In this document: piece by piece, positions 13,820 through 50,049 of the stretch
Position numbering within the stretch: position 1 is the first letter of the stretch
Layout of the letters: each line of letters begins with the position of its first letter
The notes under the pieces: generated by a model
What the model was told of the DNA's origin: nothing
What the model saw: only the letters and a program-made list of their open reading frames with translations
The model's database searches: none
Origin: Squalus acanthias
Lineage: Eukaryota
Assembly (NCBI GenBank): GCA_030390025.1
Contig: CM059431.1
Coordinates: forward strand, 104,348,001-104,412,000
Length of the DNA: 64,000 nucleotides
Direction: 5' to 3'
Program-made: the position numbers and the translations under genes

Positions 13820-14653
13820 GGGGGTGATTTTATCAATGGGGACATGATGGAGGCGGGAAAGCTGCTTGTCGGGTTTTAGTCCCGCCTCCATCGACATCTG
13901 GCCAATCCACGCTAGTTTCCCTTGATTGGCCTTGTTAAGCCCGCCCTGCGGGCTTAGCCGGCCAATTAAGGGAAAGCCGGTGACAGATGACGTCAGCGTA
14001 TGACGCTTCATCTGTCAAGATTTTTTGACAGATGAATTGTCATCGTTTGACAGCTCTGTGAAGCTGTCAAACACTCACAATCTGTCTTCTAAGTTGAGAC
14101 CTTGGACACAGGCTCATTTAGGAAGCTTTCCTGAGCAGAAAGCAGAAGGCTGCTGCATTTAAGAATGCAACGGCCATTCTGTTTTCTCTGCCGGTGAGAT
14201 GAGGCAGCTCCGCAGCCTAAAGGCACGAAGCCTGGAGGAAGAAGCAAAGGTGAGTAATCTTATTAAAACACTTTAGACTCACCTCACACACTTACCTCTC
14301 CACACTTGCACTCATCACTCACCTGCACACCGGACATTTCAGCCCCTTCGACCCGCTCCAACCCACGGCCCACCTCGCTGACCCTGGTGAGGTTCGGAGC
14401 CGTTGGGAAGCCCACACTTTAGGGCTCAAAATAGGGATTAGCCAAAAAACTACCTGTTAACAGGCAGTTAATTGGCACTAATCCCCTTCCCGCCTCGAGG
14501 AGACGGGACCCGGCGCGGGTCGGGTACGCGCCTCCTGGGAAGATGGCACAGAGGCGGGTTGGGGGTGGGATGGGTACCCGCTCCCAGATTCTGCCATTTT
14601 CCCGCCAGTCCCGCCTCCATACCCGCCTCCCCAGGGCTGGCAAAATCGCCCCC
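13820..14653. mobile_element. Harbinger-type MITE (family C)
   Basis: Ends GGGGGTGATTTT / AAAATCGCCCCC; homologous to 45840-46682, 59426-60300 and 63093-63961. Confidence 0.8.
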
Positions 14654-15317: not shown

Positions 15318-16006
15318 TGAAAGTTAACATGCAGTTACAGCAAGCAATTAGGAAAGCAAATGGTATGTTGACCTTTATTACAGGAGGATTTGAGTATAAG
15401 AGTAAAGACGTCTTACTGCAATTATACAGGGCCGTGGTGAGATCACACCTGGTGTATTGTGTACAGTTTTGGTCTCGTTACCTAAGGAAGGATATACTTG
15501 CCACAGAGGGAGTGCAACAAAGGTTCATCAGACTGGTTCCTGGGATGAGGGGATTGTCCTATGAGGAGAGATTGAATAGACTAGGCCTATATTCTCTAGA
15601 GTTTAGAAGAATGAGAGGTGATCTCATTGAAATATACAAAATTCTTACAGGGCTTGACAGGGTAGATGCAGGGAGGATGTTTCCCCTGGCTGGGGAGTCT
15701 AGAACCAGGGGTCACAGTCTCAGAATAAGGGGTCGGCCATTTAGGACTGAGATGAGGAGAAATTTCTTCACTCATAGGGTGGTAAATCTTTGGAATTCTC
15801 TACCCCAGAGGGCAGTGGAGGCTCAGTCGTTGAGTATATTCAAGACAGAGATCAATAGATTTTTGAATATTAAGAGAATCAAGCGATATGGAGATAGTTC
15901 AGGAAAGTGGAGTTGAGGTAGAAGATCAGCCATGATCTTATTGAATGGTGGAGCAGGCTCGGAGGGCCAAATGGCCGACTCCTGCTCCTATTTCTTATTT
16001 TCTTAT
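15318..16006 (+). mobile_element. CR1 LINE 3' end
   Basis: ORF 15329-15916 (KANGML...YCVQFWS...RVVNLWNSLP) followed by a CR1 tail. Confidence 0.9.
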
Positions 16007-18958: not shown

Positions 18959-20967
18959 GGCCCAGAATTTGTTGTTAAAATAATGGTGAGTTTAATGGCG
19001 CTCGCCGTTATTAGTGCATAAATCGTCCAGCAACTTGTGGTGAGGAAGGGATACCCCCTGTAAGGTTTCCAAAATTTGCAGATCCCCAAAACCTAAGGAA
19101 AAAGGACTTTGGAACTACCCCAGAGTGATAAAAATGCATTTGGGCCTAACATAAAGAATTTAAGACCAAAAAACAAGTTTTGGCATTTAAAAAAAAGACA
19201 TGTCTGGACCTGTAAGGGAGAAAAGGCTGCACAGGAGGTGGGTTCAACCTCTGTAATAGCAGTTTTGGGTATTGCAGTTAAATTGCATTGTCTGGGAATC
19301 GGGATGACCTCACTCAAGCCCCAGCAAGCATTAACATTTGGACAATAGGCCCTGGGAGAAGGCAGCCCCACCCAAAACACAGGCACCATTAAAACCTATC
19401 AAAACCATGCACAATTCAAATCGCTCAGGAACATTCTATAGAAAAACCCGAGTCCAGCCTAGAAACCCAAAACACGAAACCAATCACCTGTAATCAACTG
19501 AAGAGATCGACAGGACGCAAGCCATTTGACACTTAGTAAAGTCGTTACTGTTAACGAGGTCTTACAATGACCAGGATTTGATTTGGTTTTGACAAGGCCA
19601 CTTCAGTTTAGTATAATTGAAGGCTCATCAAGCAGTTACAACAGTTGAAGTTCTCCAGTAAAGAGTTCAAGTTCAACAGAATTGAAAGCCTGTGTTGAAC
19701 AGAAGTCAGGGCTGGAGGTACAGAGTTCAGGACAAGCAGGCAGAAGGCAGTTTCCACAGTTCTGCAAGAAGGCAGTTCCACAGCTCGGAAGAAGACAGTT
19801 TAAACAGAGGCAGAGTTACAGCAAGAAGTTCAACAAAGAAGGCCAACAACTTCACAAGCAGACCGACACGCAAGAAGAAACCAGAGTGACTGCCTCAGTG
19901 ACCATCGGACACCTCGCGGCAACAAGGGCCTTACAAAACCTTTTACTCAAAAGACTCTAAATCCTAACTCTAAACTGTCAAGGATTCATTTGGTGAGCAT
20001 TATTCCTGGTTCTCCAGAGTCCAACCTAGCTAGTGAAGTGGGATTGGGAGGGGTGAAGTATGCTTCTAATGTTATTTCCCTCGCTTGTACCGAAGTGTTC
20101 CCCACCTTTAGAGTGGTAAGAGTGTTTGTGTTGTGTTTTACTTCCTTGAATAAAAGTCAAAGTCCTTTCATCAAACCTGTTGTCTACTGCACCTTTGTTC
20201 ACAACCCCAAAGTAAGTCCAAGGTCTAGAACCAGGGACGTGGGAGCGATTCGAACTGCTCACTGAGTCAGAGGTGAGACTGACCCCACACATCACCCCCT
20301 ATACCCTTGAGTTGCGAATCGCCACAAATTGCTGGACGATTTGCGCCGCTCCACCGTTATCCCCGCGAAAACAGCATCTCGCCTCAACCTCCCCGCGAGT
20401 GTCAAGGAATTGCTGTGTTTGCGCATTAATTGCCAATTAAACTCAGCACAGAAAGTTAAGGCTGGTACTTAACAATATAACGACCCCTTTAATGACAAGT
20501 TTTGTGTTCCTGCATTGCAACTCAACCTCTCCCACCCAGAAAGGGAACAATTGAAACTGTGGAGTCTCATTCCTGCAGGTAGTAAATTGTCCTTAGAGAT
20601 TTTTAAAATGTAAAATGTAATTTATTTTTGAAAAACACTTGCTTTTCCTGTCTCTTTTTTCTCCCTCTCTTAATCCAATCTTTCTTTCCCTCTCTTTATT
20701 TCTCTTTCTGTACCTGATTTGACTCTAATTCATGCTATTTCCTTCTCTGTCGTTCCTCTGTTTCCTTTCTCAGTTCTTAAATCTCATGGGTTCAGGAGAT
20801 AGACTGTTGGTCCCATCGTTCACTGAGGTCCCAGATGTCCCATTGCCCTCGCCGCACCGCTAGCAGCTCGTACTCCCAGCAATTTGTGTCGAAAAAAAAT
20901 TCCGAGCTGAATGGTGAGGGGAAAGTCGAACTAACGGCGCACGCCCCGCTCCAGCAAGGTCCAGCCC
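18959..20967. mobile_element. Family A TIR element split by a solo LTR
   Basis: Starts GGCCCAGAATTTG; both halves together match the reverse complement of 55871-56606. Confidence 0.75.
19059..20303 (+). mobile_element. Solo LTR
   Basis: TGTAAGG...CCCCTATA ends; flanks CCCC/CCCT; AATAAA near 20149; homologous to 24927-26731 and 47651-49285. Confidence 0.8.
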
Positions 20968-21671
20968 ATAAATAAATAAAAACAACAGGATCTTAACTGG
21001 TTCTGGGAGAACTCTGCTGATTACATGTCCTGCCTTTCATAAACTGGTGCTGAACTGTATTTATTGCCTTGTGTTCAATGCTATGGATTTCTTCCTTATA
21101 ATTGATTCCATTATTTTGCAATTATAGGTGGCAGCTATCAGGTCTATAATTCCTTAGATCATGCTTTTGACCTTTTTGTTTCAGAGATTAGAATAATGTT
21201 AGCAATGTTTCACTCTTCTGGTGCTACCTAGTAAGGAGCATAGCATGTTTAACACAGGAGCAATGACGTTTACTCTATTTTCTGAAAGTACGCCCAACAC
21301 ATTTGATCTGGGCTTATTGGGGGGAAAATTCGGTATCAACCATTTTCGGGCGCGAACATCGCCCGGACACAAACTTTAGCGCTCAGCGCTAATTACTGCC
21401 GGTGACCGCGAAATTCAGTTTTCGCGCCCCTCGAGGGAAGTGGAGCTAAATCAAGCGCTACACACTTCTCTTAGGGCGCTAACGTCGGGGAACGAGGTGC
21501 TACCTCAGAGCGCTACTCAAGTTCCGGTGCTGTCAATTACAAGTCCTCAGACAGACTGGCACCTTCCAGTTCTTAAAGGGGAGGTTCAATCATGGTGCAC
21601 AGCCTCACTCTGATCATTGCTGCTTGTGACCTGGGCCTGCAAGGAGCTGCAATCCATGAACCACAAATCTC

Positions 21672-23460
21672 ATGGCTGATCAGAGGCCCAGGGAGAGAGC
21701 TCACCGGTTCAGCGACCAGGCATTGGAGGCTCTGGTTGTGGCTGTAGAACGCCGACAGACAGTGCTCTTCCCGGACACTGGCAGGAGGTCATTGCCGCAG
21801 GAGTTCATAAGGACGAGGAGGGAGGTGGCCCAGTACATCTCAGCCAGAAGCCTGGTCCAAAGGACTCACACCCAGTGCCTCCCCAACACTCACTCACCAA
21901 CTATGCCCATCTACTAAAAGTCACATCCGAATCTCACGCCTTGCATACATTAGCAGCTATTCAACTATGGTAGGCACATCTGCCAAACACATGGCTGCAA
22001 ACTCACTCACACACTGTCCTTTTTCTTGCAGGCCAAGCTTGCTCATAGCAGAAGGGAGCAGCAATGCACGGGAAGAGGTCAGGCGGAGCTGCATCCCTTT
22101 ACACAGCTGGAGGAGTGAGTGCGCAGCATCATCATGGCCCAGGTTGTGGGCGCTGTGGCTGTCGGAGAGGTTGACCCCCTTGGGGACAACAACGGTATGG
22201 TCATCACCTTTCCCTCTTCTCTCATACCACTTCCCCCTCACAACACAAGCCCTTCCCACTTTCCATCTAAGTATACTGTCTCCATCCCTTGCTCCCTTCC
22301 TGCCCCCCTCCCCTGATGTTAAACCCACTCTTGTGCCTTTATGCTTTCAGATAATCAGCCACCATCTGACCAGCCTGTCCCGCAGCCTCCCAGTGGCAGC
22401 GATGCGGGAGAGGAGGAGGAACAGCAAGCCGGAGCCTCATTGCCTGCGTCTCCCGAGGGCGAGACATCCGATAATGGGGCCACGCGGTCGCTGGAGGGGA
22501 GCAGAGGAAATGGCTCTGATGTGGGTGAAGCTCTGGGCCCCAGCGGGTTGCAGCAATGCCACGGGGAAAGGGAAGCTCGGGGGCCATCTCCCCGGAGGGT
22601 GAGTGTGCGCACGAGTTCTGCTGCACAGGACTCGGATGAGGACCTCGAAGTGGAGGCGATGACCACACAGGCGATGAGCATGCACACTGAGCTCATGGGT
22701 GCAATGGCAAGGGTGCCCGAGAGCATGGATGCACTGGCTAGGAGCGTGGAGGAGTCCGCCTCCAGCATTGCTCTCATCTCTGCTCACACCATCGAGCCCA
22801 TTCTTGGCACTTTGCAGAGGATGGTTGACTCGCAGAAAGACCGTGGGGACCCAGACCTCATGCCGCGTGTCATGGGTGAAGTGGCAGCAGCGATTGCAGC
22901 ACAGGCCGAGGCAATGCAGCGGCTTAGTGCTGTAATGGAGTCAGTGGTTGGTGGCATCGAATGTCAGACTGCTCTCATGCAATCTCACGCAAGCACTGAC
23001 TGCTGCCATTGTCGCTGGGTCGCCTATACTCAACCGGGGATCTCACAGTGCCGCAGCAGGCCAGCAATCTGTGCTCAAGCAGATTGCTCCAGATGCTGAT
23101 GTACTGCCCCGGGGGAGTGGCAGTGTGTTGGTTGAGCAGGAAGGTGCTGTCCTCTCTCAGGATGACAGCATTCCTGTTCCCACCACTGCCACTCCACCAT
23201 TGCACTTGTTGCAACCTGTAACACAGCCATCCCAGACTGCTGCCGCCCATGCAGAGGTGGTGCAGTCTGCAGCCGGGCCTTCCAGCCCAGAGTTGGCCGA
23301 GGGCGTCCTGCAAGACCATCTGCAGTCTCTGGCTCCCAGACTCAGCAGCCTTCCACCAGCCTTGCTGCAGCCACTGGGGCCACATTACGGAGGAGCAGTA
23401 GGGTTGGGAGGGGGGAGTTGCAAAGGGGAGGGAGATCATTTAGGAAGGCCCAGTAAATAA
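21672..23460 (+). pseudogene. Harbinger Myb/SANT-like DNA-binding protein gene, 3 exons (21672-about 21880, 22032-22194, 22351-23460)
   Basis: RERAHRFSDQALEALVVAVERRQTVLFP Myb/SANT-like start. Exon-1 end and donor deleted, TGA in exon 2, frameshift near 22985. Confidence 0.82.
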
Positions 23461-23726
23461 AATGTTAATAGCAAATGGGGGGAGTGTGTGTACAAAAGTT
23501 GTAAATATATTGTTCAGTTTGCTAAGAACCAGTTGTGATTGTTCATAAATTGTGTTTGTTTATTATTGGTTGTGTTTGATAAGAGAAAGTTATGAAGAAT
23601 AATAAATGTTTATTTCGACGTCGCAAATTTTGTGATGTTTCTCATCTGAGCTTTGCCCGGTGATAGGGGCTGCGAGCTGGCTGTAATGATGTGGTTGTTC
23701 TGTGCAAATGCCATGTGCTATCCCAT

Positions 23727-24896
23727 TTATTGGAAGCGCTGTGTAATGAGACGTTCACGAACGGCCCTTGCAGAAGCAACACTGAGTGGCTTCCTCCTAT
23801 GTTGGTGCTGCTCCTCCTCCTCTTCATCCTCCTCCTCCTCCTCCTGTCCCTCTTCCTCCTCCTGAGGTGGTGCACCAATCCCTGGTGGCAATGGCTGGGC
23901 CCTCAGAATGGCCATGTTGTGCAGCATGCAGCACACAAGAATGAAAACGGAGACTTGATAAGGGGAGTACTGCAGGGCTCCTCCAGAGCGGTCAAGGCAG
24001 CGGAACCGTTGCTTTAGCATGCTGATAGTCTTTCCGATCAGGTTCCTGGTGGCGGTATGGCTCTCATTGTATGCATGCTGGGCAGGAGTGTTGGGGTTGC
24101 TAAGGGGTGTCATCAGCCAGGTGGCGAGTGGATAACCCTTGTCCCCGAGCAGCCAGCCGCGACCTTCATGTGGTGGATGGAACAGTGCTGGGACACCAGT
24201 CTGTTGCAGGATGAATGCATTATGGCTGCTGACAGGATAGTGGGCATTGATGGCGAGGATGCGCTGTCTGTGGTCGCACGCCAACTGAACGTTCAGAGAG
24301 TGGTAGCCTTTGCGGTTGCGGAACACCTCTGAATTGTGATGAGGTGCCCACAATGCCACGTGGGTGCAGTCAATGGCGCCCTGAACCATAGGGAAGCCCG
24401 CTATCCTTGCAAAGCCACATGAGCGTTCATGCTGTTTGTCTCTGGTCATGGGGAATGAGATGTACTCCCTTCTCCTTCTGTACAGAGCATCTGTGACCTC
24501 TCGGATGCAGCAATGGACAGCGAACTGTGAAATGTTTGCAATATCCCCTGTTGAAGCCTGGAAGTAGCCGCTGGCATAGAAATTGAGAGCGACTGTGTCC
24601 TTCACTGCCACTGAGAGAGACGTCCTTGTCCTGAGCTGAGGCTGGAGGTCTTGCTGCAGGAGATGGCAGAGCTCTGTGACCACATCCTTGCTGAAGCGAA
24701 GCCTTCTGAGGCACTGCTCCTCTGAGAGATGAATGTAGGAGAACTACTCCCTGAATACTCTGGGAGGTTAAAGTCTCCTGCTGGGAGCCGAGTTGGCCCT
24801 CCTCCCTCTGGCCACGTTTTCCAATCTTTCTCTCTGCCTCCGCTGCCTCCGACAGTGAAGCTGGAGGGCGCGGACCCATGCCAGTACAGCCCCCAT
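23727..24896 (-). pseudogene. Harbinger DDE transposase (HARBI1-like), inactivated
   Basis: 390-codon frame from ATG 24896 with two early in-frame stops (TAA at 24770-24768 and a TAG shortly after). GAIDCTH and GDKGY are kept, but the third catalytic E is G (RNLIGKT). Confidence 0.9.
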
Positions 24897-24926
24897 TAAG
24901 TTTTGGAAATGTTTCAGTATCAAAAG

Positions 24927-26731
24927 TGTAGGCTTCGCAAAATCCCCCAGAAACTTGCATAGAACCCTAAAGGGGGTGATGAAGGAATTTGAGGTCAAAG
25001 CCTCAGTTGTGAAGACATTTTGACGGGAATCAAGGAAGGAAAATACAGAACCTGAGGAAAATGACTTTGGATGATAAAGATACCTTTTTAAAAGGGCCAT
25101 TGGGTAAACCTGCAGTCACAGAAGCACAGGCTGCGGGAAGGGGCGTGGTGAGGCAGTGGACAGCTTTTGGCTATTGGGACCAAGTCAAGCTGTCTGGGAG
25201 ATGTTTGCACTGCAATCCAACCAAGGAGGAAGAGCCTCATCCAAAACCTCACAAACACATTCAAAAATGAATAACCCAAAACCCCTTTTGAAATCCCCAG
25301 GTTCAGACAGGATACTGGAAGTCTGAAAACAATAAAACTGCCAGTATACAGTTTCATAGCCCGTCATCCCATCAAAACCCGATTAGCCAAGTATCGACAG
25401 GAACAGTTTAACAAGCCCGCCAAAAACCTAAGACAAAAGAAGCGAGATTTGGCGGGTAGATAGAAGCCCTGTCTCAATGGAAGACATCGGTAGCCATCAG
25501 GACAAGTTAACACTAAGTTAAAGTCATCAGACTTAACGAGCCCGCCAAACACCTAAGACACAGGAACCGAGATTTGGCGCGAAGATAAACAGGCCTCAAC
25601 TGAAACCTAAATCACTTTAACGCAAAATCGATTAGTAAAGCAGTTTTGGCGCGCAAAACACAATAGACCTGACCAGTATAATTGGGGGCCTATTCCCCCA
25701 AGAAGCAAGCAGCGAAGAGGAGCGAAGAAAGAGAGCCACACAGGTTCGACACCAGAGCCAAGCAACAAGGAACCTTCGGAAGGCAGGCAGGCCTACAGCC
25801 CCGGGCAAGAAGACACGAGGAACCCGAGAGACACTGTGGTGTTGTCTGTTCAAGCCGTGCGGTTTGTTACAACACTATACTTAAAGTTAGTTCAAGGCTG
25901 TCCAGAGAGGCAATTTAAAGTTAGTAACAGTACCGAGGCACGCAAGGACAACATGCCACAGTAAGGGGGGGGGTCATCGATGGACCCGACTGGGAAAAGG
26001 GTTCCCAACCACCTCGCAGCAATCAAGGCCCCACGAACCAACCAACACCACGCCACCGACCAACCAGGTGCGAACCAGGCCGCCGCGACCACCGAAAGAC
26101 CAACACCAGGAAAAAACGAAGACACGCAAGTTTCCACACTACAAACTAATCCTGACTTACCCCTGGGTAAGATTTTCCCTTAAAAGAACTCTAAACCCTA
26201 CCTCTAACGAAGAAAAATTGGGTACTCACCTGATACAATCCAATACGCACCTTACCGCATCAGCGGACAGACCCAAACTGACCTGGAGTGCAGCTGAAGT
26301 CTTCTACCACGTCCAGGGTACGGCAGGCCCCAACAACCAAAAACCCCAGTGAACCCCGAAATTGCGAAATACCTCAACTGTCAAGAACTGTCAAGGAGTG
26401 GTGAGCATTCTCCCTGGTCCTCTGGAATCAAACCTAGCTAGGCAGTGGGATTGGGAGGGATAAGGGGTTTTGTATACTGTAATTCTCCCTCGCCTGTACC
26501 GTGTGTTCCCCAACCTGTGTTTAAGTATTAAGTATGTTTTAAGATCGTTTGTGTTGTATTTACCTTTTCTTGACTAAAAGTTAAAGTTCTTTCATCAAAA
26601 CCTGTTGTTTGCTGCACCTTTTGTTCACGACCCCCAAATAAGTCCAAGGTCTAGAACCAGGGGCGTGGGAGCGATTCGAACCACTCGCTGAAGTCAGAGG
26701 TGAAGCTGACCTTACCACATCACCCCCTACA
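24927..26731 (+). mobile_element. Solo LTR inserted 30 bp upstream of the transposase ATG
   Basis: TGTAGG...CCCCTACA ends; perfect 4-bp TSD AAAG. Confidence 0.87.
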
Positions 26732-27342
26732 AAAGTGAGACAAGTAAACCTGATAAATTTTTGTCAGGAGCAAAACTTCTTCAAGCAGGAAAACCTCAAA
26801 TGGGTCAAAACGCCTGTCTGCTTCTGTCAAAGTAACAAGGCAGCCGATAAAAACACCCAGGAAGTGCGCGCCTTTAAATAGCACTCCTGCAGCTCCCAGC
26901 CGACTGCAAACTGCCTCCTCTACCTGTCGTTCCTAAGGGCAGGCGCTGAGGCAGGGGGCGAGAATGAATTTCCGGTCCGGGGCGCTAACGGGACGATGCA
27001 CGCTCGGATGATGTCACGATCTCCGGGCGCAGGAGATCGTGGCGGTCGTGTTTAGCACCACCGCAAATTGGCAGGTGAATTTCACCGGCGGCGCTGACAT
27101 CGCCGCGCTCGGGCGGTAAGTTGTTAGCGCCCCCTGGAGGCGCTAACAGGAGGCGCTAACCAACCGAATTTCTCCCCCAAATTTTCGCCACCCATCTGGC
27201 TATCATACTGTTTACATGATTTCTGTTTGTCCCTAATAAACTGGCTTACAGGTGATCTCATTGCCTACTTACGTCAAAGTGTACATAACATGAAAGAGTG
27301 CTTGTGGACCCTTGACAGCCAATCAAGATCTTGAGCTATACG

Positions 27343-29199: not shown

Positions 29200-30005
29200 C
29201 CCAGAATTATTCCATAAGTCATTTCCACATGAATGACAAGATTCATGTCAGCCTGTATTTTCCGACCCCCACGGGTGCGTACGAGCTGCGTGCACACCCG
29301 TAGGGGCCTCGCAAGTGCCGGTTTCAGGCATGCCAAGCGCATGCGCTGAAAACCGGCACTTCCGATCTCTGAAGAATTCTCTTGACAGATCCTCCGCCTG
29401 CCTGGGAGAAGGGCCTCTGCGGGGGGGTGGGGAGAGTTTTGCTTTCTGCAGAACCTCCGCCCGCTGAAAACCTTTAAAAATCTTACGCCTGGTAAAAATC
29501 TGTGCAAGGCCTGCTTTTACCAGCATAAGAGTTTAAAAAAGAAAAAAAAGAAAAAAAAATTCACTCAGTTATAATTTAAAAATACTTTTAAAAAAGGTAA
29601 GTTTATTTTTAGCCCCGCAAAAAACTTTAATTTTTTTTCAAAAGATTAAATTTTTGTTTAAAATATTTAATTTAATGTAATTTTAACTAATTTTAAATAT
29701 GTGATTAAAAAAATATATATTTAGGGGTAAAAATTCACTTGGTTGCGCCTCCCGTTAGCGCCTTAAGAGGGCGCTAATGGGGCGTTAAGCCGCTAACGCC
29801 CGAGCGCAGCGCTGTTTGCGCCGCTCGAGAACTTAACTTGAGATTGTGCGGCGGCGCTAAAACTTACTGCTGCGACCACCTGCGCGCGCAGATTGTGACG
29901 TCATTCCATGGTGCAACGCCCTTGGGGCGCCCCGGTGCGGAAATTGAGTGGCGCCCCCTGCCTTACCGCCTGGCGCTTCCAACGACCGGAAGACTGGAAC
30001 GTTAT

Positions 30006-30287
30006 CATAGAAACATAGAAACATAGAATCTAGGAGCAGGAGTAGGCCATTCGGCCCGTCGAGCCTGCTCCACCATTCAATACGATCATGGCTGATCATC
30101 CAAATCCAGTACCCTGTCCCTGCTTTAATCCCCACAGTACACATATCCCACCCTACCCCCGTAACCCCACGTATTTAATTCCCCCTAACATATCCCATCC
30201 TATCCCCATAACCCCACATATTTAATACCCCCCTAACACTAAGGGTCAATTTATCATAGCCACATCAACCTAACCCGCACATTTTTG
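30006..30287 (-). mobile_element. 5'-truncated HE1-like SINE inside the Harbinger element
   Basis: Near-identical to 37262-37520; CATAGAAA repeat tail; GTTATCA duplicated on both sides. Confidence 0.82.
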
Positions 30288-30522
30288 GTTATCAATCGGT
30301 GTGGGGCTGGGGGGGGCGCTATTTAAAGGGGGCCTCTTCCTGTCTTTTTCTGTGGTCGACATTTATGCACCACTCGTTCTGAGAGAGAGAGAGAGATTCG
30401 GAGAGAGAGAGAGAGAGACTTCTACATTGACTCAACGCTTTGTGAGGTAGTTTTGCCTAGTTCATCCTAACTTTGTTGCTACTTTAGTTGCTGTACCTCA
30501 TTACTTTTCTGGCAAAGAGAAT

Positions 30523-31686
30523 ATGGGGGCTGCAATGATTGGGGGCGTCGTCCTGCTCCAGCTGAATCGGAGGATACGGAGACGCAGACAGAGAGTGGCA
30601 ATGATGGCCAGACGGAGGAGGGCCATCAGGCGCATGTACAGGAGAGCTTACCCTCCCAGGGTATATCGTGAACAGCTCTCCTACATCCATATGTCCGAGG
30701 AGCTGTGTTTGCGAAGGCTGCGATTCAGCAAGGAGGTGGTCACTGAGCTCTGCCACCTGCTGCAGCCAGATCTGCAGCCTCAGCTGAGGTCCAGGACGTC
30801 TCTGTCGGTGGCAGTGAAGGTCACAGTGGCTTTGAACTTCTACGCCACTGGCTCATTCCAAGCTGCTGTTGGGGACCTCGCCAATATCTCCCAGTTTGCG
30901 GTGCATCGCTGCATCCGGCAGGTCACCAATGCCCTCTTCAGAAGGAGACGAGACTTCATCTCTTTCCCTATGACCCCAGACAAGCAGCGTGACCGTGCTC
31001 TGGGCTTTGCGAGGGTAGCAGGCTTCCCCATGGTGCAGGGCGCCATTGACTGCACGCATGTGGCTTTGCGTGCTCCGCGAGAGAATGCAGAGGAATTCAG
31101 GAACAGAAAGGGGTTCCATTCCTTGAATGTGCAGTTGGTCTGTGACCACAGACAGGTGATACTCGCTGTCAATGCCCACTATCCGGGCAGCTGCCACGAT
31201 GCTTTCATCCTGCGCCAGACTACTGTGGCAGAGGTTTTCGAGGCACCGCATCAGCCAGTTGGTTGGCTTCTGGGGGACAAGGGGTACGCATTGAGCACCT
31301 GGCTGATGACACCGCTCCGTACGCCAAACACCCGTGCTGAGCTGCGGTACAATGAAAGCCATCAAGCAACCAGGAACATTATTGAGCGCACAATCGGCAT
31401 GCTGAAACAACGGTTCCGCTGTCTGGACCATTCCGGAGGAGCCCTGCAGTACTCGCCTGAGCAAGTTTCGAACTTCGTAGTCGTGTGCTGCATGTTGCAC
31501 AACATGGCAATCCTCAGGACCCAGCCAATGCCACCAGGCCTTGTAGCACCACCAGAGGAGGAGGAGGAGGAAGAGGAGGAAGAGGACGAGGACGATGATC
31601 ATCAGCAGCACCAAGGCGGGAGGGCGGCCCACAATGGTCAAACTGCAAGGGCCGTCCATCAACGACTAATAGCAAGCCGCTTCTAG
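30523..31686 (+). CDS. Harbinger DDE transposase (HARBI1-like nuclease), intact 387 aa
   Basis: Uninterrupted ATG-to-stop ORF with GAIDCTHV (D), FRNRKGFHSLNVQLVCD, PGSCHDAFI, LLGDKGY (D), IIERTIGMLKQRFRCL (E) and CCMLHN; Arg-rich N-terminus and acidic tail. Confidence 0.93.
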   Translation: MGAAMIGGVVLLQLNRRIRRRRQRVAMMARRRRAIRRMYRRAYPPRVYREQLSYIHMSEELCLRRLRFSKEVVTELCHLLQPDLQPQLRSRTSLSVAVKVTVALNFYATGSFQAAVGDLANISQFAVHRCIRQVTNALFRRRRDFISFPMTPDKQRDRALGFARVAGFPMVQGAIDCTHVALRAPRENAEEFRNRKGFHSLNVQLVCDHRQVILAVNAHYPGSCHDAFILRQTTVAEVFEAPHQPVGWLLGDKGYALSTWLMTPLRTPNTRAELRYNESHQATRNIIERTIGMLKQRFRCLDHSGGALQYSPEQVSNFVVVCCMLHNMAILRTQPMPPGLVAPPEEEEEEEEEEDEDDDHQQHQGGRAAHNGQTARAVHQRLIASRF

Positions 31687-31980
31687 GGCCCCTGCCATTG
31701 CTACAAACACTAATCAACCCAGCACGCAACCCCTAAGCCGGCCAAGGCACCAATAATTCCAACCACCAGCCATGTATATTTTGAATACAGAAACTTATTT
31801 ATTTTACAAACTCTGTGTGTGTCAATTCCTCATGACAAACTCATAGAAATAAACACAAAAAAACAGTCAATAACATAACTGGTTCTCACAACCTGGAGAT
31901 AATGTCCAAAACACTAAACAAAAGTTGGACCATGAACCTCGGCCTTTAATAAAAAAATGACCAGCATTTTGGCACACCTC

Positions 31981-33783
31981 CTACTTTTTGCCCTTCGAGG
32001 GTGATCTCCTTCCCTTGCGCACTTCCCCCCTTCTAACCCTACTGCTCCTCCGTAATGGGACCTCAGTGGCTGCAGCAAGGCTGGTGGAAGGCTGCTGCTC
32101 GTCAGACCCTGACACTGCAGATGCCCCTGAAGGACGGCCTCGACCACTTCTGGGCCTGGAGGGCCCGGCTGCAGACTGCACCAACTCTGCATGGGCGGCA
32201 GCAGTCTGTCCTACAGGCGGTGGCAAGTGCAGTGGAGAAGTGACAGTGTTGGCAGCAGGAATGCTGTCATCGTGAGAGAGGACAGCAACTCCCTGCTCGC
32301 CCGACACACTGGCACTCCCACGGGGCAGCACTTCAGCATCCGGAGCAATCTGCCGGAGAACAGATTGCTGGCCTGCTGCGGCGCGGTGACAGCCCCGGGG
32401 ACATGTGCACGAACCATCGAGGTTGGCAGCAGTCTGTGCTCGCGTGGCCTCCATCTGAGTCTGTATGAGAGCAGTCAGAGGTGGGATCACGGCAGCCAGT
32501 GACTGAATTGCAGCACTAAGCGTTAGTGTGGCATCCGCCTGTGCTACAGCGAAGTGCTCCACACTCCTTGCCAGTGACTCAATGCAATCGGGCACCCTTC
32601 CCACTGCACCCATGAGCTCAGTGTGCATGCCCACCGCCTGGGTGTTCATTTCTGCAATCAGCCGCTCCTCCTCTGCGTCCATTGCAGTAGGAGTGTCTGG
32701 CATACTCTCCCTCTGGGGAGAAGGCCCCCGTTCTTCCCTACCCCCCCCATGGCGTTGCTGCAGCCCGCTGGGTCCTGGAGCTTCACCATCATCAGCCCCT
32801 TCCCCCCTGCTCCCCTCCGGGGAAGGCGTGTTCCCAGTGTGGGCATGGGCTTCCTCGGGAGAGGGTGGCACTGATGCTCCGGCTTCCTCTTCCTCCTCAG
32901 CTGCAGCATCACTCCCAGTGGCAGCTTCAGGGCCCGTCTCCTCAGCTGGTGAATCACCATCTGAAAGCAGGGAGGTACAAGAGTGGCTTTAGCGTGAGGA
33001 CAGGGTGGCAGTAAGGGAGGAATAAGTGCAGCGAGTTAGCAAGTTGGATTGAAAGTGTCAAAGGCTGGTATTGTGAGGGACAAGTGGAAGGACAGAGGAC
33101 AAAAAGGTGATGACCTTACCATTGCTGTCCACAACGGGGTCGGCGTCTCCAGTGGCGACGGGACCGATCACCCGGCTTGCCACAATCCTGTGGACGCGCT
33201 CCTCCAGATCGCTGAGGGGTTGCAGCTGAAGCCGCCCTCCACCCGTCCGTTGCTGCTGTCTCCGATTATGAGCCAGCTTAGCCTGCAAGAAAAAGGACAG
33301 CATCTGAGTAAATATACAGCCATGGTCTTGCCTGATGTGCCTCCCATAGGTGAATAGCCCTTACAATATACAGCCATGGTCTTGCCTGATGTGCCTCCCA
33401 TAGGTGAATAGCCCTTACTGTATGCATAGTGTGGAATGTGTGTGTGTGTTTGATGAAAGGGCCATAGGTGTTGGATGAGTGTTGTGCATTGGGGTTTTAA
33501 GACCCTCTGGCCATAGAGTGAGGTTGAGATGGAGGGATGGAGAGGTATTGAGAAAAAGCCACTCACCCTGACGACCCGAGTGAGGTCGTTGAACTTTTTT
33601 CGGCATTGAACATGGGTCCTGGGCACCATGCTCCTGGAGGAGACGCTCTGAGCCACCTCCCTCCACACTCTTCTGAACTCGCGTGGCAAAGGCCTCCTGC
33701 CACTCTCCGGGAACAGCATGCATCGTCTGTGCATCCAAGGCCCGCTCAGTGAAGCGATGAGCGCGTTCTCTCACCCTCTCCGT
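31981..33783 (-). pseudogene. Harbinger Myb/SANT-like protein gene, 3 exons (about 33783-33567, 33282-33120, 32960-31981)
   Basis: RERAHRFTERAL...WREVAQSVSSRSMVPRTHVQCRKKFNDLTR; GT-AG introns in phase 0 and 1; exons 2 and 3 open. Exon 1 has an approximately 20-nt frameshifting deletion relative to the 21672 copy, and ACG where ATG is expected. Confidence 0.85.
33311..33418. repeat. Perfect 54-bp tandem duplication in intron 1 of the Myb-like gene
   Basis: AATATACAGCCATGGTCTTGCCTGATGTGCCTCCCATAGGTGAATAGCCCTTAC x2. Confidence 0.92.
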
Positions 33784-34649
33784 GCTTGGCAGCAAAATGG
33801 ATTACAGGTCTCTCCAGGCTGAGATTCAAGGCTGCAATGAGCAGGGTGTGGCTGGGGAGCAAGTGCCCCCCCCCGCTTTAAGAAGTGTCCGGCGCCAGTG
33901 TGTCTGTGTTCCCTCGCTAACTGGCAGCAGCTGCGCTGCGCTCGTGCGCTGAGTTAGCACCTCACTCCTTGGCCTTTGCGCCTTAAGAGAGGTGTGCAGC
34001 GCCTACTTTAGCGCTCCACTCACCTCCCGGGGCGGTAAAAGTGAAGTTTCCTGTCAGTGCCGATAATTAGCGCCAGGCGCTAATATTTGCATCCGGACGA
34101 TATTTGCGCCCCAAATGGGGCGCGACCTAATTTCTACCCCTTAATGTTTTAGTGTGTTTTTTGAGTGATCCCCATTCATACTTTTGACAGATCTGTGCGG
34201 AGAAACCTGTCAAAAGTGTGAAGGGGGATGCCCTTCTTTGATTGGCTCCCCATGGCCCACGTGATCCCAGGGACGCTCGCGAACCGCTTGCCTGCGCCCC
34301 TGGGATACCTGGGCCTCTGCGGCGCGCACCAGGAGAGGCCCAGGATTGGAAGTGTCGGGACCTATGGAGCCAGCAGGTAAGTGCATAGATTTTTTTCCAG
34401 ATCGGAGGCCTCTGCCCGCAGGAAGCCTCTGATCGGAAAATCTGGCCCATTGAATATCTATCCAGTGGTTGTTTATCCATGGGAAAGTTTAATTTTGTAC
34501 AGTTTTATCCAGTTACAGCCTTTTATGTCATTCAATTGCCATATTAAAGAGATGGAAATTACAGTTACTTTCAAAGGGCAAGTAGGTCTCACTTTGGATT
34601 TTTTTTTGGTGTCAATGTTCTTCCATTTTCTTTCTTTCTCTTCTCCTGC

Positions 34650-36806: not shown

Positions 36807-37261
36807 CAGACCAATGAATATGTCTACAAAAAAATTGAGTTCATAATAAACTCATGAATGATAAAATTGCTTCCTCTCAAATACAATCATTTAACTAAAG
36901 TCAAAACTTCACATTTGCGATCGTACTTAATGTAGCACATGTGCTACATTAGGAATCTTTGATGAATTAGCCTATCAAAATTTCTCCTGTGAGGAGTATA
37001 AAACGAGACATCACTGAACATCAACCCTTTGACTTGGCTGAGGCAAAAGAGGTGAGAAACGCCATAGTGAGTTTCAAACGTATTTAATCCCGGAAGTTTT
37101 AGGAAAATGTCCTACAATTTTCGCTGTAGAACTCTAAAAGTAACTCTAAGAAGCTCAGTGAAGATAGGGTTCAACAATACTGGTGGGGAATATCAGATCT
37201 TGGTCAGTCTTTGGTCACTCCTTACGAGCCAATACAAGTGTCCTTTCTTGGCAGGTTGTTA

Positions 37262-37662
37262 CATAGAAACAAGGAGCAGGAGTAGGCCATTCGGCCCGTC
37301 GAGCCTGCTCCGCCATTCAATACGATCATGGCTGATCATCCAAATCCAGTACCCTGTCCCTGCTTTAATCCCCACAGTACACATATCCCACCCTACCCCC
37401 GTAACCCCACGTATTTAATTCCCCCTAACATATCCCATCCTATCCCCATAAATTTAATCCCCCCTAACACTAAGGGTCAACTTATCATAGCCAAATCAAC
37501 CTAACCCACACATTTTTGGACTGTGGGAGGAAACCGGAGCACCCGAAGGAAACCCACGCAGACACGGGGAGAATGTGCAAACTCCACACAGACAGTCACC
37601 CGAGGTCAGATTCGAACCCGGGTCTCTGGCGCTGTGAGGCACCAGTGCTAACCACTATGCCA
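37262..37662 (-). mobile_element. Full-length HE1-like V-SINE with CR1-derived tail
   Basis: Minus strand TGGCATAGTGGTTAGCACT (A box) and GGTTCGAATC (B box); V-domain-like TGTGTGGAGTTTGCACATTCTCCCCGTGTCTGCGTGGGTTTCC; 3' end shared with CR1. Confidence 0.85.
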
Positions 37663-38554: not shown

Positions 38555-39311
38555 GGAGGGAAAATTGAGTCGCGCCCCCTTTGGGGCACTAACTTCGCCG
38601 GGGCGCTACTTTTAGCGTCCCGAAAAAATTAGCGCCCCCGCGGCCGAAATTCATCGGTAGCACCCCAAGAGGGAGACAGGGCACTACTGGAAGTGCCCCG
38701 CCTCCCTCTTAGGGCGTTGCGAGGGAATATTGCGGCGCGAAGTGCTGCAGCACCATGCGCTGGGGCACGTCGCACGCGGTACTGCAGGTCTTCCTCCATT
38801 ATTAAAGGGGAGGGGCCTAGTGCAGCGCAACCCGAGGCCCAGCTGGGCCACCAGGGATCGGAGTGCCGGCAAAAGAGCCCGGCCCTCAAGAGAAGGGCCG
38901 GGCTCATGGAGTGCAGCCGGCACTCTGCAGGGGAGCTGGTCAGGAGGCCGGGGACGGTAACGGGGGCCAGCAAGAAAAATTGCTGCCCGGCACCTCCCCT
39001 TTAATTAGCGCCGCCCCGGCCGCAGGTAGGCCCCCCTGACCCCGTTGGACATAGCGTCCGGCGGTAAGTCAGGGGGCGCTACCAAAGATCGCGGCCGGGG
39101 TGCGAGCGGGGCGCGAGTGGGGCGCTGCACACGGCGATGACATCATCGCTGGCAGCGCAGCACTGTGGGGTGCTAACGGCTAATGCTAACCTCCCGCTGA
39201 ATTTCGCGGGAGGCGTTGGTGGCGCCGTGCCCGGGCGCTAGTTGCTTTGCGCCTCGTTAGTGCCCTCTTAGGGCGCTAACGGGAGGTGCAAAGCAACTGA
39301 ATTTTTAGGCC
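38555..39311. mobile_element. Non-autonomous Harbinger derivative with subterminal arms like the autonomous elements
   Basis: Ends GGAGGGAAAATT / AATTTTTAGGCC; perfect TSD GTA; many TAGCGCC/GGCGCTA motifs. Confidence 0.82.
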
Positions 39312-39821
39312 GTAATGTCACAACTCGCCTTTTCTCTTTACAGATGCTGATTGACCTACTGTGTCCATGTTCTGCTTTAATTTCAAATTTCCAGTTTTAC
39401 TTTTTTATTCAAGCGCATTTTATATAAGCACACACATTTGAGAGCAAAGCTTATAAACTGATTGATATCTATTATAGATAGAAATTCTTGGTTATGACAC
39501 ACACTGTGACAGATGCAACATCTTAAGAAATAAGAAAACCAGTTGTTGGCCTTGAGCCTGAGGGCTCAAAAGCAATTTACTGACCTCTATTTGACCTGAG
39601 TAATTTCCAAGCCTCTACATTTCCCTACGATATATTTACGCCACAACAATGGAGTTGCTAGTTTGCAGTATAAATCCAGTTTGCACAAATGCTACACTGT
39701 ACTGTCAATACTCCCCTAGATCCCCATAGGGAGTGCTTGAGCAGTGGCCTGAAGGAAAAAGACATGGGCCATGAATTTGCGGTCGGTATGACGGCATACT
39801 CTCAGAGTACACCGTCATATT

Positions 39822-40567
39822 GGCCCTGAATTTCCGATCGGAGGCTTCCTGCGGGCGGATGCCTCCGATCGGAAAAAAATCTACGCACTTACCTGCTGGC
39901 TCCGTAGGTCCCGGGGCTTCCGATCCTGGGCCTCTCCTCTTGGGAATGCACAGAGGCCCAGGTGTCCCAGGGGCGCACGCGGTTCGCAAGAGCCCCTGGG
40001 ATCACGTGGGCCAGCTCAACCAATGGAAGAAGGGAATCCCCATTCATACTTTTGACAGGTCCGTACGCACAGAACTGTCAAAAGTATGAATGGGGATCAC
40101 ATTTAAAAACACACTAAAACATTAAATATATATTTTTTAATTACATAATTTAAATTAATTAAAATTCCATTTAATTAAATATTTTAATTTTTTTAAATGT
40201 TTTTACAGGGCTAAAATTAAACTTACCTTCATGAAGAGTATTTTTAATTTATAAATGAGTTATCAAATTTCATTTTTCTATTTTTCAACACTCTTATGCT
40301 GGTAAAAGCAGGCCTTACGCAGGCTTTTACCAGGTGTAAGATTTTTTAAAGGTTTTCAGTGGGCGGAGGTTGTGCAGAAAGCGGAACTCTCCCCCCGCGG
40401 AGACCCTTCTCCAGGGCAGGTGGAGAATCTGTCAAGAGAATTCTTCACAGATCGCAAGTGCCGGGTTTCAGCGCGTGCGCTTCGCATACCTAAACCCAGC
40501 ACTTGCGCGGCCCCTACGGGCGCGTACACACCTCGTACATACCCGTGGGGGTCAGAAAATTCGGCCC
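39822..40567. mobile_element. Family B MITE nested in an older related fragment (about 39766-40800)
   Basis: Ends GGCCCTGAATTTC / GAAAATTCGGCCC, flanks ATT/AAT; close to 52726-53447. Confidence 0.82.
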
Positions 40568-44498: not shown

Positions 44499-45250
44499 GG
44501 GCCAGAAATTCGGCTCTCTGGCTTCCTGCGGGTGCAAGCATCACGCGCGTACTTACCTATCGCACCTGCCGTTGTGTTTCGGGCCCACGAGGACTTCGGG
44601 TTCTGGGCCTCCTCCAGCTGCCGGCGCGCAGTGCTTGCGTATCCCAGGGGCGCGGTTAGTTCGAAACGTCCCCTGGGATCATGTGGGCCATGGAGAGCCA
44701 ATTGTAGCAGGGCATTTTCATTCATAGATTTGACAGGAAGACCTGTCAAATCTATGAATAGAGATCGGCCCCAAAACCACACTTAAACTTCAAATATTTT
44801 TTTTTTTTAAATCACATTTTTAAAATAACTATAAGTTAAATAAATTAACTACTTTAAACAAAAATTTTAATTTTTGAAAAAATTAATTATACTTTTTAAC
44901 GGTGCTAAAAATAAACTTACCTTTCTGTAAAGTATGTAATAATGATAAACCTGTTGAAAAAATGTTTAAATTGTAATTAATTAACCACTTACCTTGTTAA
45001 AAACAGGCCTTGCGCCTCCTTTTTAAATGTGCAGCTTCTCCACGGAGAAACCTGAAAAAAAAAACGAAGTTCGCTGCGTGCGCGCAGCCTCTCCCGCGCA
45101 TGCGTTCAACTTCTGAACCCCTTCCTTCAGGGGAATGTAAGTTCCGGTTTCCCACGCATGCGCAGTGCATGCGGAAAACCAGCACTTCAGGTGGCCTTAC
45201 GGGTGAGTACACAGTGCGTACTCACCCGTGGAGAGCCGAATTTCTGGCCC
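44499..45250. mobile_element. Family B MITE
   Basis: TIR GGGCCAGAAATTCGGCTCTC perfect over 20 bp; inverted homolog of 1065-1816. Confidence 0.87.
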
Positions 45251-45289: not shown

Positions 45290-46880
45290 TAACAGTGAGG
45301 CTGTCAGCGCTCACCGTTGTCATGGAGTAAATCGGGCAGCAACTTCTGGCGTCCGCACATGCACAGTTAAACGTGGAAATCAGGAAGTTGCTGTACGATA
45401 TGCCCTGCTCCTCCACAAGCTTCGCTAGACCGGTATCTCGCAGTTAGACTCGGCATTTAAACACATGAAGGGTGTGAAGTTGAGATACTTACCCACTAGA
45501 TACCCATTAATCATGCCAGAAAAAGTTAGGGCTTGACCATTCAGTGAAAGTGAATTTTTAACGATGTAATAAGTGATAATTACTGCCAAACAACCTCTCT
45601 AGCCCTGAAAAGTTATAGTTACAAGTCTGGAGTCTCAGTCCTTCAGAGGTGAATTATTGTTGGAGGTTTAAAAATAGTTCTAAATTAAAATAAAACTTTT
45701 TTTTCACTTTTTCTTTCTGTCTCTTTTATCTCTCGCTCTCTTAATTCCATCTTTCTTTCCCTCACTTTATTTTGCTTTCTGTACATGGTTTTACATTGAA
45801 GTAAATATTCTAACTTACACTTCCTGGTTTAGACTCTGAGGGCTGGATTTTCAATGACCCGTGGAGTCGGGTTTGGAGGCGGGCGGGGGGGTTAAAGTTG
45901 CAGATTCGGGGGTCCCGACCCCATTCTGCCTCCAACCCGCCTCCATGCCAGTTTCTCTGACGGCGGGTACCCGACCTGTGCTGAGACCCGACTCCCCGAG
46001 GCGGGAAGGGATTAGTGACAATTAACTGCCTGTTAACAGGTAGTTAACAGGCAGTTTTTTGCATAATCCTTTTTTAAAAAGAAAAGTGTGGGCTTCCCGA
46101 CAGGTGGCAACCACGGCAAGTTTTCGGGGCGGGCCGTGGGTCTGTAGGGGTTGGAGGGGTCGATATGTCCTGTGGGCAGGTGAGTGATGGGTGCATGTGT
46201 GCAGAGGTAAGTGTGTAAGGTAAGTGCTAAGTGTTGGAAAAAGTTTTACTTACCTTAACTTCCTCCTGCAGGTGTCAGCCCTTCAGTTCTCGGGAGTTAG
46301 AAATCTCACCGGCACAGAAAGCAGGAAAGCTGTGGTCCTGTCAAAAACTGCAGCCTTTTGTTTTCTGTGTTGGAATGATTTCTAACTCAGCCTGAGAGGA
46401 AGGACTAAGTTAGAAATCATATTGTGAGTGTTTGACAGCTTCACAGAGCTGTCAAACGCTGATACTTCATCTGTCAAAAGCTCTTGACAGATGAAATGTC
46501 AGTCTGTGACGTCACCTGTTGCCGGGTGGCCCTTAATTGGCCTGCTGAGCCCACTGGGCGGGCTCAACAAGGTCAATCAAGGGACAATACAGTGGGTTGG
46601 CCACATCTCGATGGAGGCGGGTTCACAAGCCAGAATGTGTGATTCCCGACCCCAACCCGACCCCAGATTCAAAATCCAGCCCTGAGTGCCTCAGTGAGGA
46701 TTCTTTAATCTGATTGGTTGAGGAGACCCGCTAATGCTCAACATGCCACAGATGACCTGCAGAGGATGCAGCGCTGGAAATGGATCTCTAGGAAATGTAA
46801 TTTTCCGCGCACAAGCCCGCGAAAAGTCTGTGAGCAACTGTAAGCGTGATGAATGGCGAGCGCCATTCCTTTGCCGCTGA
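45290..46880. mobile_element. Family A-related element split by a family C MITE
   Basis: Colinear in reverse with 6599-7287 once 45840-46682 is removed. Confidence 0.65.
45840..46682. mobile_element. Family C MITE
   Basis: TIR GGGCTGGATTTT / AAAATCCAGCCC; perfect TSD TGA. Confidence 0.85.
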
Positions 46881-47650: not shown

Positions 47651-49285
47651 TGTAGGGGGTGGTGGTTTGCGTCAGCTTCACCTCTGACCTCTGAGCGGTT
47701 CGAATCGCTCCCACATCCCTTGGTTCTAGACCTTGGACTTATTTGGGGGTTGTGACAAAAAGTGCAGCAGACAACTGAGTTTGATGCAAGAACTTTGATC
47801 TTTATTCAAGAGAGTAAAACACAACACAAACACTCTTAACACTTTAAAAATGGGGAACACTTCAGTACAAGCGAGGGAAATGACAGTAGAACAATACTTC
47901 ACCCCTCCCAACCCCACTTTACTAGCTAAGTTAGGCTTTGAAGGACCAGGGATAATGCTCACCAATCCTTTGACAGTTGGGCTAAATTGCGGTTATGGGG
48001 TTCGCTGTTTATGGCGGTTAGTGTCTGCCATACCCCATACGCGGTAGAGGACTTCACCTGCGTATCTGGTCAGTCTTCGCGAGTCCGCTGATGTGGTAGG
48101 ATGTCATTTTGGATTTATCTGGTGAGTACCCAATTTCTTTGGTTTAGCAGTAGGGTTTAGAGTCTTTGGGGAAAATCTTACCCAGGGGTAAGTCAGGAGT
48201 AGATTGTAGAGTGGAAACTTTGCGGTTCTTCGGGTTTTTCTTCCTTTGAGTTGGTCTTTGTTGGTCGCAGTGGCCTGCTATTACCCGGTCAGTTGGGGGT
48301 AATATGCGGTTGTTGGTTTCTTGAGGCCTTTGGTTCCCGCGATGGTTTTAGGCCTCGTCTAGTGTGTCGGTCGACCTCGTGGAGCCGTCGGTGACTTGTT
48401 GCTGCTTGTTGCTCCGGGTGACTGTGTTGGGACCGTTGTTGGAGGTCCGTCGAGGTGGTATCTTCACGAGCTGGACTCAGGTGTGTCTGAGTGGTGAGCG
48501 ATGCCGACTCGCTTCCAGCTCGGCTTGTCTTCTTCTTTGTTTCTTCTTCTTCTGATGACCCCCCTGAACTGCTTAACGGGCCTTCAATTATACTGAATTG
48601 AAGTGGCCTTATCTACCCGCCAAATCTACTCAGTTCATTTTTTGGTTTTGGCGGGCTCGTTAATCGGTAACGACTTACTAGCGTGTTAACTGGTTTTTTA
48701 ACAGGCCTTCAATCTCACCCATTGAACATAGCCTTATCTACCTGCCAAATGTGCTCAGTTCATTGTTTGATTTTGGTGGGCCCGTTACCATTAACTGCTC
48801 TGTAAGTGTCAAATGGCTTTTGGGATGGCTTGCATCCTGTCGATCTCCTTGGTTGATCACTGGTGATTGATTTCATGTTTGGGTTTCTAGGCTGGACTCA
48901 GTCTTTCTATAGAATGGTCCTGAGTGGGTTTTATTATGCATGTTTCTGATGGGCCCTGTAATCGGTTTTGATGGGGCCTGTATTTTGGGTGGGACTGTCT
49001 TCTCCCAGGGTCTATTGTTCAAATGTTAATGTCTGCTGGGGCTTGAGTGAGGTCATCCCGGTTCCCCAGACAGTGTCATTAACTGCAATAGCCAAACTGC
49101 TTTTACAGAGGTCGAACCCACCTCCTTGTCCCTTTACAGGCCCAGACATGGTTTTAAAATGCCAAAACTTGGTTTTTGGTCTTATATTCCTTAGGTTAGG
49201 CCCAAATGCATTTTTATCACTCTGAGGTAGTTCCAAAGTCCTTTTTCCTTAGGTTTTGGGGATCTGCAAATTTTGGAAACCTTAC
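47651..49285 (-). mobile_element. Solo LTR inserted in a minisatellite
   Basis: TGTAGGGG...CCTTACA ends; perfect TSD GTGA; homologous to 19059-20303 and 24927-26731. Confidence 0.88.
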
Positions 49286-49795
49286 AGTGATGGACACAAT
49301 GTGGTCTTGGTGTGATGGACATAATGTGGTCTTGGTGTGATGGACACAATGTGGTCTTGGTGTGATGGACACAATGTGGTCTTGGTGTGATGGACATAAT
49401 GTGGTCTTGGTGTGATGGACACAATGTGGTCTTGGTGTGATGGACACAATGTGGTCTTGGTGTGATGGACACAATGTGGTCTTGGTGTGATGGACATAAT
49501 GTGGTCTTGGTGTGATGGACATAATGTGGTCTTGGTGTGATGGACACAATGTGGTCTTGGTGTGATGGACACAATGTGGTCTTGGTGTGATGGACATAAT
49601 GTGGTCTTGGTGTGATGGACATAATGTGGTCTTGGTGTGATGGACACAATGTGGTCTTGGTGTGATGGACACAGTGTGGTCTTGGTGTGATGGACATAAT
49701 GTGGTCTTGGTGTGATGGACATAATGTGGTTTTTGGTGTGATTGACACAATGTGGTTTTTGGTGTGATGGACATAATGTGGTTTTTGGTATGATT
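49286..49795. repeat. 25-bp minisatellite, about 20 units (one more unit at 47626-47650)
   Basis: TGGACA(C/T)AATGTGGTCTTGGTGTGA repeated head to tail with no spacers. Confidence 0.95.
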
Positions 49796-50049
49796 GATGT
49801 ACACTAGGCACAAGACTTCTACCTGATCAGAACTGGATGCAGTATTAAAGAACAGCATACAGTTTGATCATTACCTCTTCTGACTTGTATTCTACTGTTT
49901 TTGCAATGTAATTTGACATCCTATTAGTTTTGTTGATCTGTATTACTTGGACATATTCAGCGTTAAGTCTTCTGAGACTCCTAGGTCACTTTCAGCTTCA
50001 TTCTTAGCTACTTCAATGCCATTTATGAAATACGTGTGTTGTTTTCAAA

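Follow-up and report, generated by a model that had tools for sequence, protein, structure and literature searches.

A full-length two-gene PIF/Harbinger transposon with a damaged Myb/SANT helper gene, inserted in an older miniature element of the shark Squalus acanthias

A 64,000-nucleotide stretch of Squalus acanthias DNA (assembly GCA_030390025.1, contig CM059431.1, positions 104,348,001 to 104,412,000 of the forward strand; hereafter the window, whose own numbering is used throughout) carries a DNA transposon in which an intronless DDE transposase gene and a convergent, three-exon Myb/SANT gene lie between short inverted repeats (Table 1). We conclude with high confidence that this is a full-length two-gene copy of the PIF/Harbinger superfamily, which inserted at a TTA within an older miniature inverted-repeat transposable element (MITE). 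Afterwards its helper gene was deprived of its start, so that the copy now likely depends on another for help. An initial annotation, made from the same DNA, had assigned the element to the two-component PIF/Harbinger transposons with a 3-bp target-site duplication (TSD), and the DDE transposase, the Myb/SANT gene and the duplicated TTA were all found.

The boundaries of the element are well defined. Its terminal inverted repeats (TIRs), GGGGTAAAAATT and the inverse of this sequence, match at 11 of 12 positions, an agreement with a chance of about 2e-6 for a given pair of ends. They are short, with likeness extending past 12 bp only with an indel, and they start with the G or A of PIF/Harbinger ends in the broad sense. 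When the copy was excised in silico together with one TTA, a MITE of ~780 bp was restored that is colinear across the junction with two of its paralogues elsewhere in the window (alignments of 693 nt at 86.8% and 773 nt at 82.4% identity). Since these empty paralogous sites align straight across the junction, the perfect TTA duplication is real. At this one site the target reads ATAT-TTA-ATGT (29717–29720 and 34144–34147 being the flanking letters). No listed public contig joins the element, which sits within a high-copy MITE, to unique flank.

The transposase frame is uninterrupted over 387 aa, as the annotation had it, and matches Pfam DDE_Tnp_4 (E 5e-39) with the catalytic residues D176, D252 and E288 all present. 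Compared with 73 homologues of at least 300 aa, drawn from 120 listed matches, it shows no deviation at the 93 columns conserved in at least 80% of them. An AlphaFold model of the protein (predicted local distance difference test score 89) places D176 in a strand, D252 just past a strand and E288 in a helix, in agreement with the description by Han et al. (PMC4482050; this and the other papers identified here by PMC number are cited from extracts of their text). The N-terminal region is helical in the model, and the protein has no Pfam helix-turn-helix (HTH) match at E 0.1. A Foldseek search returned no match at E 0.001, its weak rows being DDE transposases and integrases, and from the PDB it gave distant DDE enzymes only. 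The protein encoded by the focal copy may have remained functional.

The Myb/SANT gene, in contrast, is broken in exon 1. Its minus-strand exons are joined by GT-AG introns of 284 and 159 nt, and its protein matches Pfam Myb_DNA-bind_5 (PF13873; E 1e-4, 22.6 bits versus a cut-off of 21.7) as well as Myb_DNA-bind_4, which bears out the gene structure first proposed; the homologous protein P0121 also carries PF13873. For exon 3, no homologue was found at E 1e-5 among 8,000 candidates, and the ESM Atlas gave unnamed chordate clusters and Myb/SANT leads below 0.9 only. Other copies of the family were seen through all contigs of four of the 21 listed public runs (X1, X2, X6 and X8); five public runs of one organism contain 74–76% of the sampled words. 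The exon-1 deletion, estimated in the annotation at about 20 nt, is exactly 20 nt long and nearly private to the focal copy, because three observations concur: X8 contig 32 holds 3+17 extra letters at 33729/33730, loose contig ends in X2 and X6 agree with a 20-nt segment missing from the focal exon, and aligned-contig depth at 33730 is 0.09–3.8% of that at 33729. The annotation had also called the ACG start a lesion, and a related subfamily does have ATG at this position, as read from a loose end in X2 (42 contigs, agreement 0.95; aligned by eye). With exon 1 frameshifted and its start reading ACG, the copy lacks the two intact reading frames of an autonomous element. Since the deletion hits the first helix, the focal copy likely makes no DNA-binding helper, and it is likely unable to move unaided. 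The view that the lesions of this gene are confined to exon 1 holds for the coding exons but overlooked a retroposon fragment within the element and a 54-bp duplication in intron 1. As to exon 3, the version in a sister copy elsewhere in the window is longer by 135 nt; this gap was considered as a further lesion and rejected, because X8 contig 29 spans it without extra letters, which makes it a difference between families.

The retroposon fragment, which has a 7-bp TSD of its own, is a later insertion, because joints in public contigs skip 287 bp at 30000–30290 (with 7 ambiguous letters), other copies being without it. It is 94% identical to 37261–37519 and has an octamer-repeat tail; both sequences (30008–30287 and 37261–37519) resemble what we take to be the HE1 short interspersed nuclear element (SINE)/CR1 tail of sharks. 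Once the later changes of the focal copy are allowed for, the length of the family is ~4,096 bp. Both subterminal regions hold repeated motifs of the GGCGCTAA type, and GGCGCTAA itself has 16 occurrences in seven element ends totalling 1,923 bp, with a single one in the remainder of the window; it is a predicted binding site of the Myb protein. Rfam gave no match.

These features give the history of the copy and suggest a mechanism. The Harbinger inserted at a TTA within the older MITE and then underwent four changes, namely the 20-nt deletion, the loss of the start codon to ACG, the retroposon insertion and the intron duplication. Harbinger transposition needs both proteins, the Myb-like one binding the ends via a trihelix, binding the N-terminus of the transposase and importing it into the nucleus (PMC9392472, PMC9179366). 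By analogy with zebrafish Harbinger3_DR, intact family members would make a Myb/SANT protein that recognises the repeated subterminal motifs, imports the transposase into the nucleus and recruits it to the ends. Excision, and reinsertion at a new 3-bp site that becomes duplicated, would then be the work of the DDE transposase. Other copies could mobilise the focal one in trans, and it might in turn provide transposase. Families of this kind would have driven the many Harbinger-type MITEs of the window.

The family to which the copy belongs is very abundant and young in sequence. Median summed contig depth within the element is 5.2e5 in X1 and 6.9e5 in X2, with 6–35 in the outermost flank bins; it amounts to 10^4–10^5 times that of the unique flanks, 1.4–4 times that of the host-MITE bin and 0.09–0.18 of that of the retroposon bin. 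Because summed depth lies so far above the unique flanks, a low-copy family is ruled out, and we infer that the copies number thousands to tens of thousands. Run X8 covers repeats but little unique flank, and we take it to be trace DNA whose contigs give the family majority sequence. The divergence check proposed with the annotation can be made on these contigs: the seven listed ones within the element show 22 differences from the focal copy over 2,135 nt (1.0%; Poisson interval 0.6–1.6%). One of the seven (563 nt, one difference) holds a depth of 32 out of the 35 in its own bin, pointing to a single dominant low-divergence subfamily. In unique flanks, the window differs from same-species runs at 6 of 571 positions (X1) and 6 of 923 positions (X2), i.e. 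0.65–1.05%, and from a second organism at 3 of 237. Since a divergence of ~1% is of the same order as these flank differences, the insertion counts as young by the standard of the species itself, and the burst of the family would be recent in sequence terms.

Youth in sequence is not the same as present activity, and the strongest alternative to a helper-dependent copy of a once-active family is that the family is still transposing, with intact autonomous copies elsewhere in the genome. We regard this as possible but doubtful. In its favour, the focal copy is about as close to a majority-like contig as runs of the same species are to the window in unique flanks, and in a neutral simulation at 1% divergence both frames survive in 2–19% of copies, according to the indel rate assumed. 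Intact-looking copies are therefore likely elsewhere, and some copies of the family probably do keep both frames open. However, an open frame is not activity. At the mutation rate of the epaulette shark, a different shark (7e-10 per generation, interval 1.4–14.1e-10; PMC10587355), 1% divergence corresponds to about 15 million generations (range 7–74 million). Furthermore, the majority alleles are shared by run X6, which carries the label of a second organism, and the burst may therefore predate that split. The proposal of a recently active family thus stands as far as youth in sequence goes (~1%), while 'recently active' is a relative term, given some 15 million generations and a retroposon insertion since then. 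It is equally doubtful that the family is a major undescribed driver of genome growth and MITE load in this shark lineage, with near-identical full-length copies in their thousands to tens of thousands, some of them intact and mobile.

Several points weigh against our reading of the copy and its family. The transposase has rare residues at four columns conserved in 60–80% of homologues (A236, A256, T333 and H379), and these could have disabled it. The assignment of GGCGCTAA as a binding site draws on enrichment in ends that were picked for homology. Summed contig depth is not copy number, its value being inflated by overlapping short contigs, and the majority status of the X8 sequence is itself deduced, with eight of the 289 aligned X8 contigs listed. 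Counts of differences and joints cover the listed rows, beyond which there are 390 further rows of differences and 301 further joints. The commonest likeness class of aligned contigs is 90–95% (30,446 of 76,306 in X1, SINE and MITE contigs included); older subfamilies are abundant too, which speaks against one clean burst. Finally, no intact copy was seen among the public contigs with which the comparison was made.

A second alternative is that the focal copy makes an N-truncated Myb protein that no longer binds DNA, still holds the transposase and represses the family. In the predicted transcript, which has no normal start, the first ATG (33734, minus strand) would open a 436-aa frame without the first helix; the deletion places this ATG in frame with exons 1–3, and the frame runs to the normal stop. 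We nevertheless consider such a repressor very improbable: the lesion is nearly private, so the truncated form was not amplified, and the copy is one among thousands. The ATG lacks a purine at −3 and is followed 11 nt later by an out-of-frame ATG, and a literature search by titles and abstract openings found no precedent. Least credible of all is that the transposase is a domesticated HARBI1-like host gene and the ends are relics, as the names of its database matches and its open frame beside a broken partner might suggest, given that the ends and TSD are intact inside a MITE, family depth is very high, other sharks have no short-branch orthologue (end branch 0.32) and the simulation at 1% leaves an open frame in 16–46% of neutral copies.

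Among the listed matches, the best for the transposase are shark and ray models named 'putative nuclease HARBI1', at most 70% identical (Pristiophorus japonicus); matches from bony fish, amphibian and lungfish have 40–49% identity. By this ranking alone a shark host would be very likely. In a quick tree of 57 rows, which included 55 of the 120 matches picked for length and species spread, the focal transposase shares a clade with shark HARBI1 models, chiefly from P. japonicus (Shimodaira–Hasegawa-like approximate likelihood-ratio test (SH-aLRT) 83), but these models differ from it in that they are at most 70% identical and the two best matches are without the catalytic E. Because the best match is at most 70% identical, the focal family is unrepresented in the searched protein collection, and that same search gave no sign of horizontal transfer. 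Also in the tree are five clades of shark and ray Harbinger-type transposases that cross species and have short branches (SH-aLRT 100; P0008/19/29/20/14/25, P0004/05, P0010/13, P0039/40 and P0022/26/67), and 13 of their 15 proteins are missing one or more of the DDE residues. We regard them as candidates for transposase genes that were domesticated specifically in elasmobranchs; HARBI1 is the only transposase-derived vertebrate gene named in the extract of PMC9392472.

Among described elements, zebrafish Harbinger3_DR likewise combines a DDE transposase, a Myb/SANT gene and a 3-bp TSD in a vertebrate host, and it was rebuilt by Sinzelle et al. (2008) and is active in human cells (as cited in PMC3016246, PMC9392472 and PMC9179366). 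Its target differs, being AAACACCWGGTCTTT with a CWG core (PMC3016246). From Han et al. (2015; PMC4482050), the TWA duplication of the PIF/Harbinger group within PHIS fits the TTA of our one site, while the 12-bp TIRs starting with GGG and the Myb/SANT partner of Nuwa also fit, as may the lack of a Pfam HTH match, an HTH motif being a mark of PIF/Harbinger group transposases, and the family length of ~4.1 kb is near the 4,124-bp average given there. The CWG duplication of NuwaI is not matched by TTA, and the C-TNA-G target of NuwaII fits in its core but not in its flanks, which at our one site are T and A rather than C and G. In this feature-based comparison, the TSD fits PIF/Harbinger and the GGG ends fit Nuwa. 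Harbinger-Snek of sea kraits, which makes up 8–12% of their genomes (PMC8437027), is another young and very abundant two-gene Harbinger from a marine vertebrate, likewise accompanied by numerous broken copies and short derivatives, but it came by horizontal transfer, whereas the nearest proteins of the focal family are those of shark Harbingers.

The annotation had considered the family possibly new to the lineage. The superfamily is not: PIF-Harbinger is listed in whale shark (PMC8455134), and Tourist and Harbinger are the commonest DNA transposons of grey reef shark (PMC12498223). Etchegaray et al. (2022; PMC9179366), in the extract, report no Harbinger in elephant shark and call for tests in other cartilaginous fish. 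We found no mention of Harbinger in the genome papers on spiny dogfish and Greenland shark as far as their main texts go; their supplements may list repeat families. Nor did we find a description of a full two-gene shark Harbinger family in literature listings searched with sharks in view, a search that left aside supplements, subscription journals, Dfam and Repbase.

The window contains a second, dead Harbinger of a sister family in the opposite orientation, the copy noted at 21672 in the annotation. It is about 74% identical to the focal copy, with 67–77% DNA identity in four blocks and a synonymous divergence (dS) of 0.92 in the transposase. Its transposase has two stops and E288 changed to G, and in its Myb gene the end of exon 1 is lost, exon 2 is interrupted by a stop and 11 nt are deleted from exon 3; the element's end at 27178 is assigned by similarity, with a mismatched TSD. 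The ratio of nonsynonymous to synonymous divergence (dN/dS) between the two copies, a further check suggested with the annotation, is 0.22 for the transposase (0.16–0.29, 384 codons) and 0.50 for the Myb gene (0.38–0.67, 331 codons). These values indicate purifying selection on both genes since the families split, acting in active ancestors and not in these two copies. The sister copy had been expected to reveal the segment deleted from the focal exon 1, and its version does have the matching length and six of seven residues (five of 21 bases differ from the family's own, read by hand). It belongs to a different family, however, and is unsuitable as a template: rebuilding from the window alone, as had been envisaged, would give a chimera, the family's own segment lying in its many other copies. 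Two neighbouring features involve the same families. A repeat at about 25300–26730, possibly a long terminal repeat, is inserted between the sister transposase and the presumed left end and resembles 19973–20301 and 47651–48277. A deleted derivative at 12896–13462 joins a left end 71% identical to the focal element to a 47-nt piece 96% identical to the Myb 5′ untranslated region, a junction that suggests recombination between families.

Elsewhere in the 64 kb there are at least seven MITE-sized elements (720–840 bp) with Harbinger-type ends starting with GGG, the 3-bp flanks being exact in only some. Open reading frame (ORF) fragments resembling the reverse transcriptase of long interspersed nuclear elements, judged by eye, lie at 9128–10363, 15329–15916, 60662–61291 and 4702–5073, and a tandem repeat at 49191–49858 (minus strand) yields open repetitive frames.

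Table 1. Coordinates of the focal Harbinger copy, its parts and related elements in the window.
Feature	Position	Strand	Remarks
Focal Harbinger copy	29724–34140		4,417 bp
TSD, left copy	29721–29723	+	TTA
TSD, right copy	34141–34143	+	TTA
Left TIR	29724–29735	+	12 bp, GGGGTAAAAATT at 29724
Right TIR	34129–34140	−	12 bp, inverse of GGGGTAAAAATT
Left subterminal region	29736–30000		repeated GGCGCTAA-type motifs; 5 matches versus 0.56 expected
Right subterminal region	33870–34128		GGCGCTAA-type motifs; 3 matches versus 0.56 expected, reached in 17/1000 shuffles
Retroposon insertion	30001–30294	−	280-bp 3′ fragment (30008–30287) between 7-bp direct repeats (30001–30007, 30288–30294)
DDE transposase ORF	30523–31686	+	intronless; 387 aa, without stop
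Convergent 3′ region between genes	31687–31980		AATAAA signals at +31848, +31948, −31798
Myb/SANT exon 3	32960–31981	−	open up to stop
Myb/SANT exon 2	33282–33120	−	
Myb/SANT exon 1	33783–33567	−	ACG at 33783 replaces start codon; first helix hit by the 20-nt deletion (33729/33730)
Perfect 54-bp tandem duplication, intron 1	33311–33418		most other copies without it (other letters at 33365, 33366, 33370)
Host MITE, left part	29250–29720		~780-bp MITE with Harbinger-type ends; left terminus degenerate
Host MITE, right part	34144–34448		
Dead Harbinger of sister family	21319–27178	−	transposase 24896–23730; Myb gene from 21672
MITE-sized elements	1066–1816, 13821–14652, about 38560–39311, 39766–40567, 44499–45250, 45840–46682, 52726–53447		

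The single focal copy matters little, and the family matters modestly. A full anatomy of this young and abundant shark family with its two genes would close the gap left by the negative result in elephant shark and the passing mentions in shark genome papers. The majority sequence of the family is easily had from its other copies and is therefore a convenient candidate for another working Harbinger from a vertebrate, with a target site unlike that of the first; with only distant DDE enzymes found in the PDB, the protein is also a candidate for structure determination. A family that proved to be mobile today would rank as a two-component vertebrate transposon that is active in nature and has an AT-rich target.

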